Of a stretch of 64,000 nt of DNA, positions 17,043 to 53,229 are shown one piece after another (within the stretch, counting starts at the first letter, position 1; each line of letters opens with the position of its first letter). The DNA comes from a virus (lineage: Duplodnaviria; Caudoviricetes): IMG/VR virus record IMGVR_UViG_3300029288_000066, positions 64,001 to 128,000 of that record; one strand, written 5' to 3'. The notes beneath the pieces are model-generated. The model did not search any database. It was not told the DNA's origin and was given only the letters and a program-made list of their open reading frames with translations. The position numbers were made by a program, and so were the translations under genes.

Positions 17043-17561
17043 TTAAATCAATTTCTTTGGCAATCCATTTATGGCCAGATGAAAATTGCTATAGGTGCTG
17101 TCCTCTGTTACTTCTCTCCCAAACCAAGCTGGGGGGACAAAGGCATCGCACTCTTCTTCGGTGTTGAATTCGACCTCAATTGAATATAGCCCTTCCAATT
17201 TGTTTTTGTAAACATCCAAGTCGGCCTTTCTCTTACTGTCATCCAAAAACACTTCATATCTATGTTTGTGAACTGTAAGATGGTCGCATAACGGCCACAA
17301 AACACCAAATTGCGGCTTCAATATTTCTATTTCAAACTCTTCTCTTTTCTTATTTCCAAATCCCTTTATTGTTTGAAAGTATCTGTCTCCAATGCTGTAC
17401 TGGTCTTGCGTCATATAAATAACCTGCCTTAACCTATACAGATAGCTGCTTCCTATGTTTTGAATGTACCCCTGAGTTGTGTCCCCATAGATATAGTGTG
17501 ACAAATCTGGCAGGTTTTCTTTGCTAAGCAAAAACTTTCTTTCAATTTCTGTATTTTTCAT
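17043..17561 (-). CDS. CYTH-domain protein (triphosphatase/adenylate cyclase fold)
   Basis: EIERKFL, REEFEIEI, KHRY, EVEF, PAWFGREVT..YSN. Confidence 0.88.
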   Translation of the reverse strand: MKNTEIERKFLLSKENLPDLSHYIYGDTTQGYIQNIGSSYLYRLRQVIYMTQDQYSIGDRYFQTIKGFGNKKREEFEIEILKPQFGVLWPLCDHLTVHKHRYEVFLDDSKRKADLDVYKNKLEGLYSIEVEFNTEEECDAFVPPAWFGREVTEDSTYSNFHLAINGLPKKLI

Positions 17562-18093
17562 ATGCTAAAGTTTTTATCATTTCCTTTGCCTGAGTGTAGT
17601 TAAACTTAGACACATCTTCTGATATATTTAGTTTTTCGGAAATTTCTTTATGAGTATATTCTTCAATGGCATGCATATTAAAAACAAACCTGAAGCCAGG
17701 CGTTAGTCTCTTAATAATTTCCATTAACTCTACCGCAGGCACCTCGCATAAGCACTCACAATCATCTATGTTGTCTTGTAATCCTGTGGAATCTGAAACG
17801 CTGGAAAACGAAACGTGAAACTCTTTCTTTTTCCTCATGTATTCTATGGCAATATCAACCATAAATTTTTTAGCCCACTTTTCGAAGCTTTCAGAAAAAT
17901 CAAATTTGTGCAAACTGTTAAAAAGATTAATAAATGCATTTTGCAAGACAATTTCTGCTTCTTCCTTGCTTCCAATATATCTAATAAGTAAACCGAAAAA
18001 TTTTGTGCTAAATTTCGAATACAGCTCTCGCTGCGCACTCCTTTTTCCTTTCAGGCATTTTTCTATTAATAATCTTTCATCCATTGCACTCAT
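17542..18093 (-). CDS. ECF (group 4) sigma-70 factor; true start possibly 18084
   Basis: AQRELY..EAEIVLQNAFI..SFEKW (region 2) and LTPGFRFVFNMHAIEEYTHKEISEKLNIS (region 4), typical of Bacteroidota RpoE-like proteins. Confidence 0.9.
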   Translation of the reverse strand: MSAMDERLLIEKCLKGKRSAQRELYSKFSTKFFGLLIRYIGSKEEAEIVLQNAFINLFNSLHKFDFSESFEKWAKKFMVDIAIEYMRKKKEFHVSFSSVSDSTGLQDNIDDCECLCEVPAVELMEIIKRLTPGFRFVFNMHAIEEYTHKEISEKLNISEDVSKFNYTQAKEMIKTLAYEKYRN

Positions 18094-19208: not shown

Positions 19209-19988
19209 TTAAGTTTTTTTTATGTTTATAATTGTTTTTAATCTATCCAGTTCTCTTTTGGCCACCGCAGCCTTTTCAAAATCATCATCTTCTATATATT
19301 TTTTCAATTGAATGTTTAAAATTTCTATTTTATTTTTATTCATTTGCTCGTTATTTTGATTTTTCCTGATTTTCAACCTTTCCTCTTCCGTTTTATAATA
19401 AGCTATCTCAAACAATATGCAACGAATGGCCTCATATAAAGTTATCCTAGTTGCAGCGTCAAAAAAAGAAATGAGATTCTCATCATCCATGCTTTCGCAC
19501 CCCTCATGATAATTATCCCTGTAAACTTCTACTAAATTGTTTTGCGATATTTTTATATTTTTTAATTCATTAACTGAACAAATACTTATAGGTATAAACA
19601 AATCAAACCCATCACTTGTTTTACCCATTCCCACAAATACAGGAAATAAGTCAATCGTACTTACTTTGTCAAAAGTAAGAAGCTCAAAAATCTTTGATAT
19701 TTCTAAAAAATCCAACTTAAAATCACCTTCATCGACCAAATCTTCGTCCAACATCTTTCCAAATTCTCCCAACTTCCTTCCATTTAATTCTTGACAGAAA
19801 ACAACATCAAATACATCTTTATCTCCAACAATCAACTTAAAGAAAGTACCAAATGTTACATCCTCATCAATCTCCACTTCACAAGACAAATAGTTTTTTA
19901 AACCTTTTACAGCACTAATCTTAACATCCTTGTCTACAGTTTCTTCCAGAAAGATTTTTCCGCTTTTTTTTATTTTTATTATTTTCAT
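19209..19988 (-). CDS. Hypothetical protein with C-terminal UVR motif
   Basis: LKKYIEDDDFEKAAVAKRELDRL; TATTTATA upstream at 20005. Confidence 0.7.
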   Translation of the reverse strand: MKIIKIKKSGKIFLEETVDKDVKISAVKGLKNYLSCEVEIDEDVTFGTFFKLIVGDKDVFDVVFCQELNGRKLGEFGKMLDEDLVDEGDFKLDFLEISKIFELLTFDKVSTIDLFPVFVGMGKTSDGFDLFIPISICSVNELKNIKISQNNLVEVYRDNYHEGCESMDDENLISFFDAATRITLYEAIRCILFEIAYYKTEEERLKIRKNQNNEQMNKNKIEILNIQLKKYIEDDDFEKAAVAKRELDRLKTIINIKKT

Positions 19989-20100
19989 ATCTAGTCAGAT
20001 TTTATATAAATAACTAAACATTTTCTAAATTTAGAAAAATTTTTTTCTTTTTTCAATCATTAAATTTTGTTGTTTTGTTTTTTTTTTATATATTTACAAA

Positions 20101-20340
20101 TAGTTAACGTTCGTTTGTATTTTTATTGGCATATCAAATGACATGGGTTCAAATCCCATATACTCCACTAAGACATTAATTACAAAAGGGGTATGAAGGC
20201 ATTAGAATTTGATAGAGTGGGTAAAGAGAGAGTGTTAGCAAAAGCTTTAAACGGCGAAAATTTTATAAAAGAAGCTATGGCTCTAGCCAAAATGAGTTAC
20301 AGCCAAGCACCTGTTAACACCCTTGCGGCGTAAATAGGTA
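20101..20340 (+). ncRNA. ssrA: Circularly permuted (two-piece) tmRNA; outer ends approximate
   Basis: The T arm (ATGGG-TTCAAAT-CCCAT) and 3' acceptor strand ATACTCC-A (20143-20167) precede the 5' strand GGGGTAT (20188-20194), giving a G3.U70 pair. TATCAAA/TTTGATA helix; tag ORF 20253-20333 GENFIKEAMALAKMSYSQAPVNTLAA*. Confidence 0.88.
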
Positions 20341-20341
20341 T

Positions 20342-20375
20342 AAAAGCCCTCTCTCCTTTAGGTTTGAGGGTTTTT
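20342..20375. terminator. Bidirectional terminator between tmRNA and the convergent HNH gene
   Basis: AAAAGCCCTC...GAGGGTTTTT. Confidence 0.65.
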
Positions 20376-21132
20376 ACATCTTATTCCTTTTGGTTATACA
20401 GTTATCAAAAGCATCTAAAGGTTGAAAATTTGTGTAATGATTTAGTCTATATATTTCTTCTTCTTCTGTTTTTGCAGATGATATTGGAATTATATGGTCT
20501 AGTTGCCAGAATTTATTCTTTATCATTTTTTCATTTTTAAATCTTCCAACGTTATTCCAACACATCCAAGGCTCAAATTTGCTTTCCAAATACAATTTAA
20601 ACTCCTCAAAAGAACATCCAAGTATTTGTTCAGTCTTTGTGTTTTTTTTAAAACCACTTGTTCTTAACGAGCTACTTATTAAGCTTCTAATGTTGCCGCT
20701 CAATTTATATAGCGGGTCTTCATTTCTCTTCCGCTTGTTAAAACTATTAAGGTAAGATGGGTTCTTTATTTTCCACAACTTATCATATTCTTTTTTATAT
20801 TCTGGATGAGTTATTTTAAACTTTATTGTTCTTTGTTTTATTTTATCTCTGTTCTTTTCTCTTGATGCTTTTGCTTTCTTTTTAGAACATAATATGCAAA
20901 AACAATGAAGCCCATCTTTCTTAGATTTGCTTTTCCAAAATTCTTCAATTGGGCTTTCTACTTTACAACAGGGGCATATTTTAAATCCACGTTTTGCTTT
21001 TTTTCTAATTAAACCACCTTCTCCTTTACATTTCTTACATACAGATGCATATCCGTCTTTTTTAGTTCTATTTCTATAAAACCATTTAACATCTTTTTCA
21101 ACACAGCAACATTTACAAAATTTTGTTTCCAT
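20374..21132 (-). CDS. HNH endonuclease with two N-terminal Zn-ribbon repeats
   Basis: CKCC..DGYASVCKKC, CPCC..DGLHCFCILC; ILGCS..WQLDHIIPIS..NHYTNFQPL. Confidence 0.8.
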   Translation of the reverse strand: METKFCKCCCVEKDVKWFYRNRTKKDGYASVCKKCKGEGGLIRKKAKRGFKICPCCKVESPIEEFWKSKSKKDGLHCFCILCSKKKAKASREKNRDKIKQRTIKFKITHPEYKKEYDKLWKIKNPSYLNSFNKRKRNEDPLYKLSGNIRSLISSSLRTSGFKKNTKTEQILGCSFEEFKLYLESKFEPWMCWNNVGRFKNEKMIKNKFWQLDHIIPISSAKTEEEEIYRLNHYTNFQPLDAFDNCITKRNKM

Positions 21133-21134
21133 TT

Positions 21135-21485
21135 TTAGTCTGTTATAAAACACCTTATTTCATTTGGCAAATTAGAACCCTGCAGGTACAAATATATTTT
21201 TTTATACTTATTCTCTTCAATAAAATCAATAAAGGTAAATTTTTTAGAAAATCTAAAGGCTTGAGTTAAATCGGGGCAATTAACAATGTGAATATTATAT
21301 CCAAACAACTTTATAAGCTCTTCTATCTGTGATTCTATCAGAATAATCTTTTTAGCTTTCACATCTTCACCTATGAAAAAATGAATTTTGTTTGACATAT
21401 CAGTTTTTTCATGCTCACATATTTCCTGAAATTCTCTCTTTAGTTCAGAGTCAATCCTTATTGTGATATTTTCTTCTTTTTTCAT
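21135..21485 (-). CDS. RHH-like DNA-binding protein
   Basis: ENITIRIDSELKREFQEICEHEKTDMSNKI; directly upstream of the HNH gene. Confidence 0.7.
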   Translation of the reverse strand: MKKEENITIRIDSELKREFQEICEHEKTDMSNKIHFFIGEDVKAKKIILIESQIEELIKLFGYNIHIVNCPDLTQAFRFSKKFTFIDFIEENKYKKIYLYLQGSNLPNEIRCFITD

Positions 21486-21599
21486 AATTTATGTTTTAAT
21501 TGTTACAATGTTATAACAATGTTTATACATAAATATATAAAAAAAAATTAAAAAATCAAAATTTTAAAAATATTACAGCAAGAACTTCTATAACCCTGT

Positions 21600-21664: not shown

Positions 21665-22564
21665 ATGAGAGCTCTGAAAATTTCCCAACAGATTACAAAA
21701 AGACAGTCAGAATCATTTCAAAGATATTTAAATGAGATTGCAAGAATAAGCAAAGCAAAGACGCTGACAGGAGAAGAAGAAGTAGAACTAGCAGAAAGAA
21801 TTAAACTCGGAGACAAAAAAGCAGAAACTGAATTAATAGAAAGAAACTTAAGATTTGTTGTAAGTGTAGCAAAACAATACCAAAACGAATTTTGCCCACT
21901 AGAAGATTTGGTAAGTGAAGGCAACATAGGACTTATAAAAGCAGCTAAAAAATTCGACCCAGCAAGAGGATTTAAGTTCATATCATACGCTGTGTGGTGG
22001 ATTAGACAGTCAATTTTGTGTTATTTAAGCGATTGTTCAAGAACAATAAGAATTCCTCTCAATAAAATAAATCAAATAAATAAAATTAAAAAAATTCAAG
22101 AGTCATTTGAGCAAGAATATAGCAGAAAGCCAACCACGGATGAAATTGTTGACATTTTGGACTACGAGATTGATTCGGAAGAGTTAGAAAGGTTATTTTC
22201 AATTGACGGTGGTCTTCAATCATTAAACGCTGAGATTGTAAGTAATAAATCAAAAAAAACCGATGGTAGTGGAACAACTCTTGAGGGTCTATTGATTGAT
22301 TACACTGCCAGAAATACAGATGAAAATTTGGAGGACGAAGATTTAAAAAGAATCGTTAAGGAAATATTGAGTAAAATGCCTTATAAGCATAGAACTGTCA
22401 TTGAATTGTATTATGGATTAACTGGACAAGAGCCTAAAACCCTTGATGAAATTGGGAGGCACCTTGATTTGACCAGGGAAAGAATCAGGCAAGTTAAAAA
22501 TGCTGCGATAAGATATTTGGGAAATTCGAAAAACACCAAACTTATGAGTCCATATATGAAATAA
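21665..22564 (+). CDS. RpoD/SigA-like sigma-70 factor (short Bacteroidota type)
   Basis: MRALKISQQITKRQSES..YL; NLRFVVSVAKQYQ; FDPARGFKFISYAVWWIRQSI; TLDEIG..LTRERIRQV. Confidence 0.95.
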   Translation: MRALKISQQITKRQSESFQRYLNEIARISKAKTLTGEEEVELAERIKLGDKKAETELIERNLRFVVSVAKQYQNEFCPLEDLVSEGNIGLIKAAKKFDPARGFKFISYAVWWIRQSILCYLSDCSRTIRIPLNKINQINKIKKIQESFEQEYSRKPTTDEIVDILDYEIDSEELERLFSIDGGLQSLNAEIVSNKSKKTDGSGTTLEGLLIDYTARNTDENLEDEDLKRIVKEILSKMPYKHRTVIELYYGLTGQEPKTLDEIGRHLDLTRERIRQVKNAAIRYLGNSKNTKLMSPYMK

Positions 22565-25918: not shown

Positions 25919-26632
25919 TTATTTTTTCTTCTTTTCAAGAATGTTATCAATCAAATGATATTCTTTTGCTTCAACAGCGCTCATCCAGCAATCACGGTCT
26001 GAATCTTTTTCAACCTTTTTAAATGGTTGTTTTGAATGGAGGGCAATAATGTCATAAAGTTCTTTCTTCATCTTGTTAATTTCTGCCGCTGCAATCTCTA
26101 TATCAGAAGCCTGCCCATAAGCTCCGCCCATTGGCTGATGAATTAATGTTCTTGAGTGTTTTAATGCACTTCTGTGTCCTTCAGCGCCAGCACATAGCAG
26201 AACAGCTGCCATTGATGCTGCTATCCCAGTATTCACCGTTACAATTCTTGGAGCAACATATTGCATTAAATCATAAATACCAAGTCCTGCATATACCGAG
26301 CCGCCTGGAGAATTTAGATATATATTAATGTCCGCATCTTTGTCTACTGATTCTAAAAACAGCAATTGGGCATTAACAATGTTGGCAATCATATCGTCGA
26401 TAGGAAGACCAAGAAAAATGATTCTGTCAGCCATAAGCCTCGAAAATACGTCCATCGAAATTGCATTCATTTTTCTCTCCTCAATAATGTTGGGGGTCAT
26501 TGCAACAGGTCCTGCCGCATTAACTCCAAGAGTAGTTCTCTTGTTTATTGCAGAATGATAGTTGTGTAAAGTCATGCTACTAATTCCCCTATGCCCCATG
26601 GCATATTTTTCAAATTCACTTCTGTTCTTCAT
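25919..26632 (-). CDS. clpP: ATP-dependent Clp protease proteolytic subunit
   Basis: MDVFSRLMADRIIFLG, YLNSPGGSVYAG, AASMAA, IHQP, DRD. Confidence 0.97.
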   Translation of the reverse strand: MKNRSEFEKYAMGHRGISSMTLHNYHSAINKRTTLGVNAAGPVAMTPNIIEERKMNAISMDVFSRLMADRIIFLGLPIDDMIANIVNAQLLFLESVDKDADINIYLNSPGGSVYAGLGIYDLMQYVAPRIVTVNTGIAASMAAVLLCAGAEGHRSALKHSRTLIHQPMGGAYGQASDIEIAAAEINKMKKELYDIIALHSKQPFKKVEKDSDRDCWMSAVEAKEYHLIDNILEKKKK

Positions 26633-26664: not shown

Positions 26665-27672
26665 TTACAATCCCATTTCTTCTTGAATGATTAATTCGTT
26701 CCCTATGTTGTTTAAATCTTTAGTTTTTAAAGAAACTCTTTCTAGGTCTTCTGTGAATTCCTCTTTTAAAACTTTCGCCTGCACCCTTAATCTCTCTTGG
26801 TTTTCATATTTTTTAACCAAAGATAGTTTTTTGTTTAAATCTGAATCAATAGCTTTCTTTATTGCACCCAATTTTGTGTTTGAATCTCTCATTTCTTTGA
26901 ATACCTTCTTTGTTTCTTCTAAGCTGTGATGGTAAAGATATATGTTGGGAAAAACTTCTGCAACTTTCTCTAGTTTTTGATATTCACAATGAGGATAAAG
27001 CGGCGGATAAGCCGTTGCTGTTGATTCGTGGAAAATAAAAACATTCTCTGGTGATTTAGCTATAGATTCGTATAGTGCTGGATTCGTTTCGCTAATTATT
27101 TCAGTAATTGGAACATTGATATCTCCACTATAAATCAGAAATAAATCTTCACCACCCTTTTTGAAATTAAAAACAAACCCCGCAGATGGGAAGTCTTTAT
27201 AATGGTGACTTGTCGTTTCTACTTTATGAATTATCATATTCAAATTGTCATATAAAACACCAGGATTCGAATTGATTTCATAACTATCTTCGCTGTGACC
27301 ACAAACATCTCTCAGGTATTTTTCAAGATTCGGCTTTAAAGAAGGAATACATTCTATTTTCACAGGTTTCTTTTGTACAAAATATTTGTGATAAACAAGA
27401 GTGGACAAACTTCCTATATGGTCTTCGTGACAATGGGTGATGAACACACAATCAATGCCATCAACTAAATCTTTTTCTCTCAGCTCCGTATATACCGTGG
27501 AACCACAATCAACCAAAATGGTTCCCACAGCCGTTCTTATAATGGCACTTGAATTCTTTTCTTTTAAATCAAAAGCGCCGCCCGTTCCCAAAAAGCTTAT
27601 TTCAACTATTGGAGATTTTCCTGTATTCCTAAGTAAAGAATTTATTTTCGATTTTAATATAAACTTTGCCAT
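26665..27672 (-). CDS. Metallo-beta-lactamase-fold hydrolase (RNase Z/Apyc1-like)
   Basis: FLGTGGAF, LVDCG, ITHCHEDHIG, YSGD, FHE, LYH. Confidence 0.8.
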   Translation of the reverse strand: MAKFILKSKINSLLRNTGKSPIVEISFLGTGGAFDLKEKNSSAIIRTAVGTILVDCGSTVYTELREKDLVDGIDCVFITHCHEDHIGSLSTLVYHKYFVQKKPVKIECIPSLKPNLEKYLRDVCGHSEDSYEINSNPGVLYDNLNMIIHKVETTSHHYKDFPSAGFVFNFKKGGEDLFLIYSGDINVPITEIISETNPALYESIAKSPENVFIFHESTATAYPPLYPHCEYQKLEKVAEVFPNIYLYHHSLEETKKVFKEMRDSNTKLGAIKKAIDSDLNKKLSLVKKYENQERLRVQAKVLKEEFTEDLERVSLKTKDLNNIGNELIIQEEMGL

Positions 27673-50479: not shown

Positions 50480-51103
50480 TCATAATTTTTGTTCTTCTAA
50501 ACTGATTAAATATTCAAGCTCTTCATTTATTTCTTTTGAAAATTCTTTGTATAATTCTTTTCCAAGCTTTGTTCTAAACTTTAAAACCTTATAAAAACTT
50601 TCCTGATTCTCCAGCTGTTTTTTATAGTCAATTTTTGACTCCTTCTGCAAACCCAAATAATTTGCCTGCAGTCTCGTCGGTTCAAAAAGTTGTGTCATAT
50701 CAGCATCTCTTATTACCTTTTGCTGGGTACTTAATTTGTCGTCATCAATCTTATAGGGAAATTCCGTTGCATCAAGAATTTCATTAATTTTTTCTAAATC
50801 AAAATCAAGTTCACTTTCTTTCAAAAACTCCTTAACCCCTTCTTTAGCATTCTTTATGTTTACATCATCTTTCTGCTCTCCAGCCGTATGATTGTAATCG
50901 TGAAAAATTGCTGCAATTAATAGCTCCTTCATTTCTTTGTCACTTAGTTTTTCAACCTTACCAATGTAGTAAGAAAAAACCGTTACGATTATGTTGTGAT
51001 TTAAATTGTGATACGGAGAATAGAGAGATTTACTGTTCTCAATAATGAAGCTTAGCGCCTTGCCTAAACATTCAAATTTTTTAAAGACTTTTACGAAATT
51101 CAT
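50480..51103 (-). CDS. HD-domain phosphohydrolase
   Basis: PYHNLNH, AAIFHDYNH, IRDAD. Confidence 0.85.
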   Translation of the reverse strand: MNFVKVFKKFECLGKALSFIIENSKSLYSPYHNLNHNIIVTVFSYYIGKVEKLSDKEMKELLIAAIFHDYNHTAGEQKDDVNIKNAKEGVKEFLKESELDFDLEKINEILDATEFPYKIDDDKLSTQQKVIRDADMTQLFEPTRLQANYLGLQKESKIDYKKQLENQESFYKVLKFRTKLGKELYKEFSKEINEELEYLISLEEQKL

Positions 51104-51165
51104 ATACTTATATTTTAATTTTTAATAAATATAATGTTAAAAATTAAAAATATAAATACAATTTG

Positions 51166-51238
51166 TAGAAATGATTGGATTTGAACCAACGACCTTTTCC
51201 ATGTCACGGAAACGCTCTGCCAACTGAGCTACACTTCT
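51166..51238 (-). tRNA. tRNA-Val(GAC)
   Basis: Cloverleaf; anticodon arm TTTCC-GTGACAT-GGAAA; T loop TTCAAAT. Confidence 0.9.
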
Positions 51239-51242
51239 ATAG

Positions 51243-51343
51243 TAAGAGTCCGAAGTCTTTTTGCCCTTCCTCTTATCCATTCCGCCACAGAATGGCTTAA
51301 GCCTCCAGGGGATGACCGCTGACTGAAGGACTCTCTAGACCCC
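51243..51343 (-). ncRNA. Unidentified ~100-nt rod-like structured RNA
   Basis: Nested stems AGAGTCC/GGACTCT, AGTC/GACT and CCATTC/GAATGG; GC-rich, non-coding, between tRNAs. Confidence 0.45.
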
Positions 51344-51425
51344 GTATATCAGCTTTTACATTTTAATTTAAGTGACGGTTTAAACTTATAAATGTCACTT
51401 ATAAATATGTAAAAGTTTTGGGTTG

Positions 51426-51500
51426 TGGAAACACTTGGATTCAAACCAAGGACCCTCTGGTTGTAGGCCAGATGCTCTAAATCAGCTGAGCTATGCTTCC
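51426..51500 (-). tRNA. tRNA-Val(TAC), atypical C33
   Basis: Cloverleaf; TCTGG-CCTACAA-CCAGA. Confidence 0.85.
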
Positions 51501-51508
51501 GAAATTAG

Positions 51509-51581
51509 TGGGAGTGGAGGGAATCGAACCCCCTAAAAATTGGATGTAACCCAACTGCCCCAGCCGTTAGACGCCACTCCC
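51509..51581 (-). tRNA. tRNA-Val(TAC), divergent D arm
   Basis: GGGAGTG/CACTCCC acceptor stem; GTTGG-GTTACAT-CCAAT; T loop TTCGATT. Confidence 0.8.
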
Positions 51582-51589
51582 GTAAAAAA

Positions 51590-51944
51590 AATAAGATGAG
51601 CATAGCCAGAGTTCTGTTTTATTTTAGCATTTGTCTGGCAAAATGACTCGTCAAACTGCCGTTAGCCTCTACCAGGTCATTATAGAATTGAAGGTTCCCA
51701 TTCTAGACCCATTTGAGTTGCACACCGCCATTTGGCTATTTATTTAAAATAAACGTTGCACCAGTAATAACGATTGTAATTCGTGGCTTTCGGGTTACTG
51801 ATTTATTTGGCGCACTCTAACCCATTTTTCTATTTTGATGCCAATCCTAACAACTTTAACATTACAATCTTCTGATTCCTTCTTAATGATGTGCTCTGAG
51901 CTTCCTCATGTATTAATTACATGCGCTAAATCCTCTTTCTTATT
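51590..51944 (-). ncRNA. rnpB: RNase P RNA (ends approximate)
   Basis: Conserved regions in order: GAGGAAGCTCAGAGC (CR I), GTGCAAC, AGACAAATG (CR IV), ACAGAACTCTGGCTA (CR V, pairs with CR I to form P4); terminal ATAAGA/TCTTAT P1. Confidence 0.85.
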
Positions 51945-52814
51945 TTTATTAATTTTCCATCGTTTTTTTTGACAGTTATCCGAACAAAATCTTTTATGAT
52001 TATATTCTGTGTTAAATTTTTTCCCACAAAACCCACAAGTTCTATTTAAATAACTTTCTTTTACTATTGTTTCCCATTTGTGATTATAACATACAACTGG
52101 ACTTATTCCGATAAAATTTAAAAACTCAAAAACCTTTTTATTTGGTATTATAATTCTATTGGTACTCTCTTTTAAATAGGCATCAAACTCATAAAAATTC
52201 AATTTTTCAATTAAAACTTTATTATCTTCTTTGGAAAATGAATCAGTGCAAAAAACAGCCCCAACCTGATTATCTAAAGTCCCATCCCCTAAATACCAAT
52301 GCAGAACAACGGTTCTGTTAAGTTCTATATCTTTGGGAACTATTTTTTTTCCATTTGGATACCACTTTTCTCTTAATTTAGTAAAACACTTATTTGCTCT
52401 TGATGTTATAGTAAAATAATCATTCCCGTTGCTATATCCACTATGCCCTTTTCCGCTGTACTGTGACAACTCAAATCCAAGTTGTTCTGCTAAAAAATCA
52501 ATGTATTCTTTAAAAACACAAGAATGAGTAAAAGATGAATTTTGGTTATTGATTATTCTTTTGCAATGTCCATCAGAAAGTAAAGACCCATTTATAACAT
52601 CTAAGTCATTTTTTGTCAAAACTATTTCTTCTAAATTCTTTTTTGACTCATCTGAACACCTTAAAGAACAAAATCTGTTTGCCTTATGTTTCCTTTTTAG
52701 AAATTCAGCTCCACAAATTTCACATCTTCCTTTAATATAATATTCATAACCAGTACCGCTTTTACGTTTTTTTTTGTAAGAACCATCTTTTGTTATTTCG
52801 AAATCTCCTATCAT
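51906..52814 (-). CDS. LAGLIDADG homing endonuclease with flanking Zn ribbons
   Basis: INGSLLSDG and LHWYLGDG motifs, FCTDSF; 3' end overlaps the 5' end of RNase P RNA. Confidence 0.85.
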   Translation of the reverse strand: MIGDFEITKDGSYKKKRKSGTGYEYYIKGRCEICGAEFLKRKHKANRFCSLRCSDESKKNLEEIVLTKNDLDVINGSLLSDGHCKRIINNQNSSFTHSCVFKEYIDFLAEQLGFELSQYSGKGHSGYSNGNDYFTITSRANKCFTKLREKWYPNGKKIVPKDIELNRTVVLHWYLGDGTLDNQVGAVFCTDSFSKEDNKVLIEKLNFYEFDAYLKESTNRIIIPNKKVFEFLNFIGISPVVCYNHKWETIVKESYLNRTCGFCGKKFNTEYNHKRFCSDNCQKKRWKINKNKKEDLAHVINT

Positions 52815-52889
52815 ATATTTATTCTTTTATATAAATATATACAAAAAAGGAGAAAAAACAAAATTATTAAAAATAATGTTTCAAACAAC

Positions 52890-53132
52890 TTATTTTCTCA
52901 TCAGAATCCCACCCCTCCAGGTCAAACCTTTTCCCCAGTAATACTTTCCATCCTTTGACATTGCCCAAACATTCATGGCCTCATCCATGTATACTGGAAG
53001 ATTTTCAAATTGCTCCATGGCAATTTTTGTTTTTGTTCTTCTTCTAAAAATTCTGTTGGCAAATCTTTTATCTTTTTTTTCAGACCCCCCACCAATGCCA
53101 AAAATGGGAGTTTTTCTTCTTGAGTTGCTCAT
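52890..53132 (-). CDS. Small basic protein within the tRNA region, 80 aa
   Basis: MSNSRRKTPIFG..SEKKDKRFANRIFRRRTK..WAMSKDGKYYW. Confidence 0.7.
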   Translation of the reverse strand: MSNSRRKTPIFGIGGGSEKKDKRFANRIFRRRTKTKIAMEQFENLPVYMDEAMNVWAMSKDGKYYWGKGLTWRGGILMRK

Positions 53133-53229
53133 GTTTTCTAAATTTAAAAATTTAAAAGACCGCAGAGCTCCTTCCATTAAAATAACTTTTCATGATAATT
53201 TCTTTTTTATAAATATTTTTAAAAAACTG

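Follow-up and report, generated by a model that had tools for sequence, protein, structure and literature searches.

The window analysed here is a stretch of 64,000 nucleotides, bases 64001-128000 of a 228,886-bp IMG/VR virus record whose completeness is estimated at 82%. Between the minus-strand genes at 19209-19988 and 20374-21153 lies a gap of 385 bp, which carries a circularly permuted tmRNA (ssrA) gene on the plus strand. Its acceptor piece comes first (20103-20167) and comprises the 3′ strands of three helices (P2c, P2b and P2a), a GAC (20140-20142), a T arm with a 5-bp stem and a TTCRAWT-type loop (ATGGG/TTCAAAT/CCCAT, 20143-20159), the 3′ strand of the acceptor stem, ATACTCC (20160-20166), and the discriminator A20167 (A73). 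The GAC, T arm and acceptor strand were read from the sequence, and the 5′ end at 20103 was placed from the outermost stalk pair and a promoter-like site. The discriminator is followed by CT; CCA is not encoded.

An intervening sequence of 20 nt (20168-20187) separates the discriminator from G1 of the acceptor 5′ strand, GGGGTAT (20188-20194), which pairs with ATACTCC at all seven positions and includes G3.U70. This strand opens the 5′ part of the coding piece (20188-20252), followed by the D-loop analogue GAAGGCATTAGA, the 5′ strands of the stalk and 13 nt ending in TTTAAAC. The stalk and linker thus occupy the 58 nt between GGGGTAT and the tag frame, and 65 nt separate the 5′ end from the resume codon. 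The tag frame (20253-20333) has no start codon. It runs from the resume codon GGC at 20253 through 26 codons ending in ...TLAA to the stop TAA (20331-20333) and encodes the tag GENFIKEAMALAKMSYSQAPVNTLAA. The order acceptor 3′ half, intervening sequence, acceptor 5′ half, tag is that of permuted tmRNA genes. The initial annotation had placed the T arm, ATACTCC plus A, the 20-nt spacer, GGGGTAT and the tag at exactly these positions, and its 7-bp acceptor stem with G3.U70 is likewise borne out.

Upstream of the acceptor piece the sequence is AT-rich and intergenic. A tandem duplication or assembly artefact was rejected, since neither a tag nor pseudoknots are found there. Because the neighbouring upstream gene is read from the other strand, a promoter dedicated to the tmRNA must lie within 19989-20102. 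Pattern matching found a promoter-like TTTG-N19-TATATTTA of the Bacteroidota -33/-7 style at 20066-20096 (plus), which would put the transcript start near 20103. As the promoter of the tmRNA this site is suggestive only; in the AT-rich window the motif is not enriched (11 found versus 7.3 ± 3.0 expected). The same promoter-like sequence (TTTG, T-run, TATATATTTA) occurs at 21530-21560 and 52832-52862, both on the minus strand. Sites that share it may form a phage promoter class, though the general motif is not enriched.

Downstream lies a terminator hairpin (20341-20376) with an 11-bp stem, an A-run and a U-run, seen in the minimum free energy (MFE) fold and shared with the convergent gene; a simple terminator scanner misses it because the hairpin loop is above the scanner's limit. 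The gene converging on this terminator (20374-21153, minus) is of HNH type, and a stretch of ~90 nt in it is ~80% identical to HNH / endonuclease VII genes of Flavobacterium phages. A synteny search through this flanking gene found no homologue and no tmRNA relatives in viral contigs, as would suit a mobile homing-endonuclease gene beside the tmRNA. Two sigma factor genes also flank the locus (17542-18093, minus; 21665-22564, plus), one ECF-like with regions 2 and 4, the other of full sigma-70 type with regions 1.2, 2, 3 and 4.

Detection and folding of the tmRNA

ARAGORN independently called a permuted tmRNA with exactly the tag given above. We then have a second line in the Rfam model RF04321 (tmRNA_permuted), a covariance model built from bacterial sequences and independent of phage sequences. 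It matched 20109-20333 across all of its 213 positions and scored 37.7 bits (E = 5e-4 when the complete window is searched with all 4227 families; 4.2e-7 for RF04321 alone in the 229-kb genome). The gathering score of this model is 47 bits, and at gathering scores Rfam reported nothing at the tmRNA locus. The covariance-model check suggested in the initial annotation therefore succeeds in the alignment, which is end to end, and falls short in the score. None of the lineage-specific models RF01849, RF01850 and RF01851 reached its gathering score on the phage gene: beta_tmRNA gave 17.8 bits against a cut-off of 84, and the alpha and cyano models scored lower. For annotation, this means that the curated cut-off of Rfam misses divergent AT-rich members that ARAGORN finds.

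The third line is the unconstrained MFE fold of 20100-20378, compared with 200 shuffles. T arm and acceptor stem both appear in it, the latter bridging the spacer, and so does a stalk of 28 bp made up of three segments; the fold as a whole has a stability of z = -2.99 (1 of the 200 shuffles folds equally well). The segments are P2a, 8 bp (20132-20139 / 20207-20214), P2b, 8 + 2 bp (20120-20130 / 20217-20227), and P2c, 10 bp (20103-20112 / 20230-20239), all on the plus strand. The stalk is a long P2 helix in the position of the anticodon arm, linking the tRNA-like to the mRNA-like domain. No mismatch is present in the acceptor stem, the T stem or P2a. The TTTGATA/TATCAAA helix noted earlier corresponds to P2a and is real, with 8 rather than 7 bp. 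Together, ARAGORN, the full-length RF04321 alignment and the fold uphold the initial assignment of a permuted, pseudoknot-poor tmRNA gene.

These results bear on whether the locus holds a tmRNA at all. A chance tRNA-like element or att-site remnant, next to a small protein gene, could in principle be mistaken for one, and two observations lend this some colour. ARAGORN alone is insufficient: at L429:1773-2156 its permuted search shows a false-positive mode, as a spurious permuted call (tag VHNLYRRMEKDNRTTIFFEI) there overlaps the 3′ end of a genuine one-piece Bacteroidota tmRNA. Moreover, an ATG at 20193 in frame with the tag creates a 46-codon open reading frame (20193-20333, plus), which gene callers will report as a hypothetical protein. 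We rejected this frame as a protein gene and see it best as a tmRNA artefact, as its ATG lies within the acceptor stem and its 46-aa product has no homologue among 5.8 billion proteins. In addition, three independent lines agree on the tmRNA, and the family described below shares RNA structure but not peptide upstream of the resume codon. The absence of a tmRNA from the locus is therefore highly improbable.

The initial annotation had most pseudoknots missing, and the absence appears to be complete. Only 13 nt, ending in TTTAAAC, separate P2c from the resume codon; after it come two hairpins within and at the end of the tag frame, then the 11-bp terminator hairpin and nothing else. This leaves no space for PK1 upstream of the resume codon or for PK2-4 after the tag. 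As modelled, the phage RNA apparently lacks any pseudoknot. PK1 is important in E. coli where no hairpin takes its place, and the apparent absence of all pseudoknots counts against a functional tmRNA.

Phage relatives and covariation of the helices

IMG/VR was scanned for the signature of GAC, T arm and CTCCA-CT, which gave more than 117 loci. ARAGORN, run over the 359 loci listed, made 64 permuted and 112 one-piece tmRNA calls. Among the matches listed, the permuted genes fall into two classes, with the resume codon lying either 56-70 nt or 78-137 nt from the 5′ end. With 65 nt, the phage gene belongs to the short class and has its CTCCA-CT end, TTTAAAC-GGC and the stalk between leader and coding piece. 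Members of the short class among these matches resume at GGC after A/U-A-A-A/C-Y, have spacers of 5-214 nt and lack PK1. These permuted tmRNAs without pseudoknots form a large class found in uncultured phages.

In 11 lineage representatives among the matches listed, the acceptor stem is paired at 7/7 and the T stem at 5/5 positions, and every one has G3.U70. Covariation in these representatives, with 2-4 pair types, is seen at acceptor positions 5-7 and T positions 1-2, and P2a is found in all 11 with differing sequences. MAFFT followed by RNAalifold recovered only the T arm and acceptor stem of the family, because the outer stalk cannot be aligned by sequence. The stalk was thus tested without alignment, by the folding energy gained on combining leader and coding piece of cognate and non-cognate lineages. 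Cognate partners gained -10.9 versus -5.4 kcal/mol for non-cognate ones (Mann-Whitney p = 1.6e-5, 9 lineages among the matches listed). The cognate partner of the phage gene ranked first in both row and column of this duplex test, and its 28-bp stalk is the strongest cognate interaction of the 9 lineages tested.

The gathering score of RF04321 was passed by 11 of the 13 relatives among the matches listed (47.4-70.3 bits), with L100 and the phage gene failing it; for the 13, none of RF01849, RF01850 and RF01851 was reported at gathering score. The closest relatives among the matches listed are L100, L240 and L299, from crAss-like gut phages. They share with the phage gene the TTATTGG lead-in and the GGTAAA/TTTATT P2b, have a 17-nt spacer and encode tags starting with GNNF or GNTF. 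In GenBank/RefSeq the locus is already annotated as 'transfer-messenger RNA, SsrA' in cr10_1 (NC_055875) and cr50_1 (NC_055868). A literature search found no published structural description of the class, only tmRNA lists from automated annotation, so that the class is apparently publicly annotated yet undescribed.

Several searches aimed at nearer relatives. A generic pattern scan of viral contigs for T arm and acceptor returned mostly tRNAs and prophage ends, and surfaced L100. The exact 23-mer of T arm plus acceptor had 0 viral matches and three unrelated metagenome matches, and a back-translated pattern for the tag N-terminus had none. Overall, no close relative of the phage gene was found in the viral, metagenome and protein collections searched. 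With the alpha-like, cyano-like, Bacteroidota and one-piece phage groups alike, the tRNA-like halves share an identity of 0.55-0.65, which favours none of these groups as the source of the permutation. In its layout the leader (ACG..TGTA..TTATTGG..GAC) mirrors the P2 3′ strand of host-type and phage one-piece genes; this is what a permutation breaking just 5′ of P2, together with loss of PK2-4, would leave.

Some spacers in the family hold further RNAs. In L334:103-421 an Rfam tRNA match (171-242) lies inside the tmRNA_permuted match, a complete tRNA gene within the spacer, and in L299:834-1202 the spacer is a 214-nt tRNA-like insert. From such tRNA-bearing spacers a single precursor would yield three RNAs. 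We also observed hatchet ribozymes, RAGATH-7, RAGATH-9 and RAGATH-22 within a few kb of the tmRNA genes of the crAss-like L100, L240, L279, L280 and L299, all above Rfam gathering scores.

The family comparison also allows the possibility of a decaying relic of a phage tmRNA, no longer functional, to be weighed. The low Rfam score could be read in this way, as could the D-loop analogue, which is TTAGAA in place of the TTTGAC or TTCGAC of relatives, and the collections searched hold no close relatives showing purifying selection. Against decay, the helices are intact, with acceptor stem, T stem and P2a free of mismatches and a stalk stronger than in any other lineage tested; the tag frame is open and ends in LAA, the terminator is present, and a full-length SmpB is retained (see below). 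We consider a relic quite unlikely, and favour a gene that is still in use.

Tag, SmpB, ClpP and the predicted rescue pathway

The phage encodes its own ClpP (25919-26632, minus; PF00574, 240 bits), as the initial annotation had it. The protein passes NCBIfam NF001368 (264 versus a cut-off of 249) and fails the head-maturation type (90 versus 120 bits). Aligned end to end with ClpP of Bacteroidota (Flavobacteriales, Sphingobacteriaceae, Bacteroidales and others), it shows 58-65% identity, and only a handful of the 64 ClpP matches are labelled otherwise. Judged by this protein, the host is of Bacteroidota type. The phage ClpP, presumably with host ClpX/ClpA as its partner, is the probable protease for chains tagged with LAA.

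Tags were compared with those of the five Bacteroidota genomes with the closest ClpP, in which the tmRNA is one-piece and 365-370 nt long (123-140 bits on RF00023), with the tags GENNYALAA (three genomes), GESNYAMAA and GEDNSYAMAA. The phage tag shares with GENNYALAA its first and last three residues and its GGC GAA AAT start, as expected from the earlier remark that it starts like Bacteroidota tags and ends in LAA. Between these ends lie 20 extra residues, versus three in the host tag, making the phage tag 17 residues longer. The commonest tag length in bacteria is 10 aa (PMC11915505). Tags of 20-30 aa were called in 38 of the 112 one-piece phage tmRNAs sampled among the loci listed, and permuted ones reach 29 aa (ARAGORN tag calls, used uncurated). 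A tag of 26 aa, described earlier as unusually long, is long for bacteria and ordinary for phage tmRNAs. In the tmRNA database, Bacteroidota assemblies have 24,380 standard and 48 permuted genes.

A search for smpB and clpX elsewhere in the genome, proposed with the initial annotation, yielded the first and not the second. SmpB is a 147-aa ORF at ~51.07-51.52 kb of the genome record on the minus strand (Pfam match 51075-51494; PF01668, 168 bits), outside the window and upstream of the tmRNA by ~33 kb. The NCBIfam equivalog cut-offs are passed (169 versus 130 bits), and residues 7-143 align with solved SmpBs, the C-terminal GK..YDK tail included; the gene is intact and its product full-length. 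In the 17 other short-class phage records among the matches listed, SmpB was found in none (0/17), and four of these are at least 94% complete. A 310-kb phage with an SmpB 52% identical to this one has a one-piece tmRNA of 405 nt, whose acceptor stem is identical to the one described here and whose tag has 20 aa.

Genes for ClpX, AlaRS and a CCA-adding enzyme of class II were not found in the genome record, which covers an estimated 82% of the genome. The tRNA genes of the phage also lack an encoded CCA, so 3′ trimming and CCA addition are needed anyway. Directly upstream of clpP lies a gene for an MBL-fold hydrolase (26665-27672, minus), which matches RNase Z over its N-terminal half only (54 bits, cut-off 293) and anti-Pycsar Apyc1 with 39.5 bits (cut-off 50). 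The matches point weakly to a role in tRNA 3′ processing or in cyclic-nucleotide degradation.

An rnpB gene had been reported in the window. No Rfam model of RNase P RNA matched at gathering score or at E <= 0.1 over the window, nor at E <= 10 on 51400-53200, and RF00010 had no match over the whole genome. What is present beside the tRNA array is a CR-I-like GAGGAAGCTCAG and a CR-V-like ACAGAACTCTGGCTAT, ~290 nt apart on the minus strand (~51906-51600), possibly a reduced RNase P RNA at 51600-51906. The earlier suggestion that the phage carries much of its own rescue and degradation route holds for the tmRNA, SmpB and ClpP, and fails, as far as the record extends, for ClpX, the CCA-adding enzyme and AlaRS. 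By its gene content the phage would supply three parts and depend on the host for the rest.

Taken together, we interpret the locus as probably a functional two-piece tmRNA gene of a jumbo phage infecting a Bacteroidota-type host. Following the established tmRNA pathway, one transcript of ~275 nt would run from ~20103 to the terminator at 20376. The initial annotation gave the gene about 240 nt; the transcript probably reaches the terminator, and the mature pieces would be longer in sum. RNase P would cleave 5′ of G20188, the 20-nt trailer after A20167 would be trimmed and the host CCA-adding enzyme would add CCA, resulting in an acceptor piece of ~68 nt and a coding piece of ~190 nt. These would be held together by 35 base pairs, 7 in the acceptor stem and 28 in the stalk (P2a, P2b, P2c). 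Host AlaRS would recognize G3.U70 and A73 and charge the RNA with alanine, and phage SmpB would carry it to ribosomes that have stalled on mRNAs which are broken or lack a stop codon. Translation would resume at GGC 20253 and add the 26-residue tag ending in LAA, and the tagged chain would be degraded by ClpP, of which a phage copy is available, with a host unfoldase. The purpose may be to prevent ribosomes from being tied up in the infected cell, for instance after cleavage of mRNAs or tRNAs by host defences.

Alternatively, the RNA could bind SmpB and ribosomes with a main role other than tagging for proteolysis, either as a competitor or modulator of host trans-translation or with a tag that is not a Clp degron. 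The divergent tRNA-like domain, a private SmpB that none of the 17 related phage records among the matches listed has, and the 17 residues by which the tag exceeds that of the host would suit such a role, and a precedent is cited in PMC11915505, where the tag-less tmRNA of mycobacteriophage DS6A is reported to inhibit host tmRNA. The tag frame is nevertheless intact here, with the conserved resume context of the family and a canonical C-terminal LAA; the phage carries ClpP, and many phage tmRNAs have long tags with AA at the end. We regard a non-tagging role as unlikely.

Within the preferred reading, a functional tagging tmRNA, the data may be taken one step further. The system could be private and partly orthogonal, with an SmpB-contacting elbow (TTAGAA for TTTGAC) matched to the phage SmpB and a long tag with host-degron-like ends, cleared by phage ClpP and host unfoldase. 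Its pseudoknot-free two-piece design could have come from a one-piece gene of Bacteroidota type, in an event separate from those in the three bacterial lineages with permuted genes. We offer this as a speculative extension and consider it improbable.

Comparison with known tmRNAs

The initial annotation compared the gene with the two-piece tmRNAs of three bacterial lineages. This background omits known and annotated phage two-piece tmRNAs (PMC9004378; NC_055875), and it is the tmRNAs of crAss-like phages (cr10_1, NC_055875; cr50_1, NC_055868) that resemble the phage gene most broadly: a permuted gene in a Bacteroidota phage, with the TTATTGG lead-in, an 8-bp P2a, the GGTAAA/TTTATT P2b, the CTCCA-CT end without CCA, a spacer of 17-20 nt in some members and no PK1. 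They also have ~60 nt from the 5′ end to a GGC after TTTAAAY, and tags that start with G-N/E-N-F. The differences are in the genome (a 229-kb jumbo phage here, ~100 kb in crAss-like phages), the tag (26 aa ending in LAA versus 13-14 aa ending in VA, GA or AA), the D-loop analogue, which is divergent here, and the Rfam score, which is lower. SmpB and ClpP are encoded here, whereas the crAss-like records are without SmpB. The tRNA-like halves are ~65-73% identical.

Bacterial two-piece tmRNAs (Keiler et al. 2000 and Sharkady and Williams 2004, as cited in PMC9004378 and PMC11915505) are represented by the alphaproteobacterial (Caulobacter), betaproteobacterial and cyanobacterial models RF01849, RF01850 and RF01851. 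They share with the phage gene the permutation, G3.U70 and a tag ending in AA, and presumably also the processing logic of RNase P and 3′ maturation that gives base-paired acceptor and coding pieces. In contrast, they keep pseudoknots, encode CCA and resume at Ala codons, whereas the phage gene lacks pseudoknots and an encoded CCA and resumes at a Gly codon, and their lineage-specific models do not recognise it (beta, 17.8 versus 84 bits). The one-piece tmRNA of Bacteroidota (GENNYALAA) resembles the phage gene in its GGC (Gly) resume codon, the three residues at either end of the tag, the arrangement of the P2 3′ strand (ACG..TGTA..TTATT..GAC) and the lack of an encoded CCA. It differs as an unpermuted host gene of 365-370 nt with four pseudoknots and 123-140 bits on RF00023.

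Among phages, two-piece tmRNAs have been published for marine myophages, Methylophilales phage Melnitz and pelagimyophages (PMC9004378). These are likewise phage-borne permuted ssrA genes found by ARAGORN, and were proposed to maintain the hijacked translation machinery. They are of the alpha type with tags starting with A, some with a glutamine riboswitch (PMC9004378), whereas the gene described here belongs to the short class of Bacteroidota phages and is accompanied by a phage SmpB. In huge phages, tmRNA and SmpB can both occur within a large set of translation genes (Al-Shayeb et al. 2020, PMC7162821), as in this jumbo phage, but the genes are listed there without gene form or structure, and the tmRNA of the related 310-kb phage is one-piece, not permuted.

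The phage gene is thus a real, divergent member of a widespread class of two-piece phage tmRNAs, and a probably functional one. What is unusual here is mainly its partnership with phage SmpB and ClpP, the long host-mimicking tag and the divergent tRNA-like domain. It provides a well-defined phage case with three parts for rescue and degradation (tmRNA, SmpB, ClpP), the host being left with processing, charging and unfolding. It shows how reduced a tmRNA can be with all conserved pairings kept, in two pieces totalling ~260 nt and without pseudoknots, and offers a natural minimal scaffold for testing the needs of trans-translation and the specificity of the phage SmpB/tmRNA pair.
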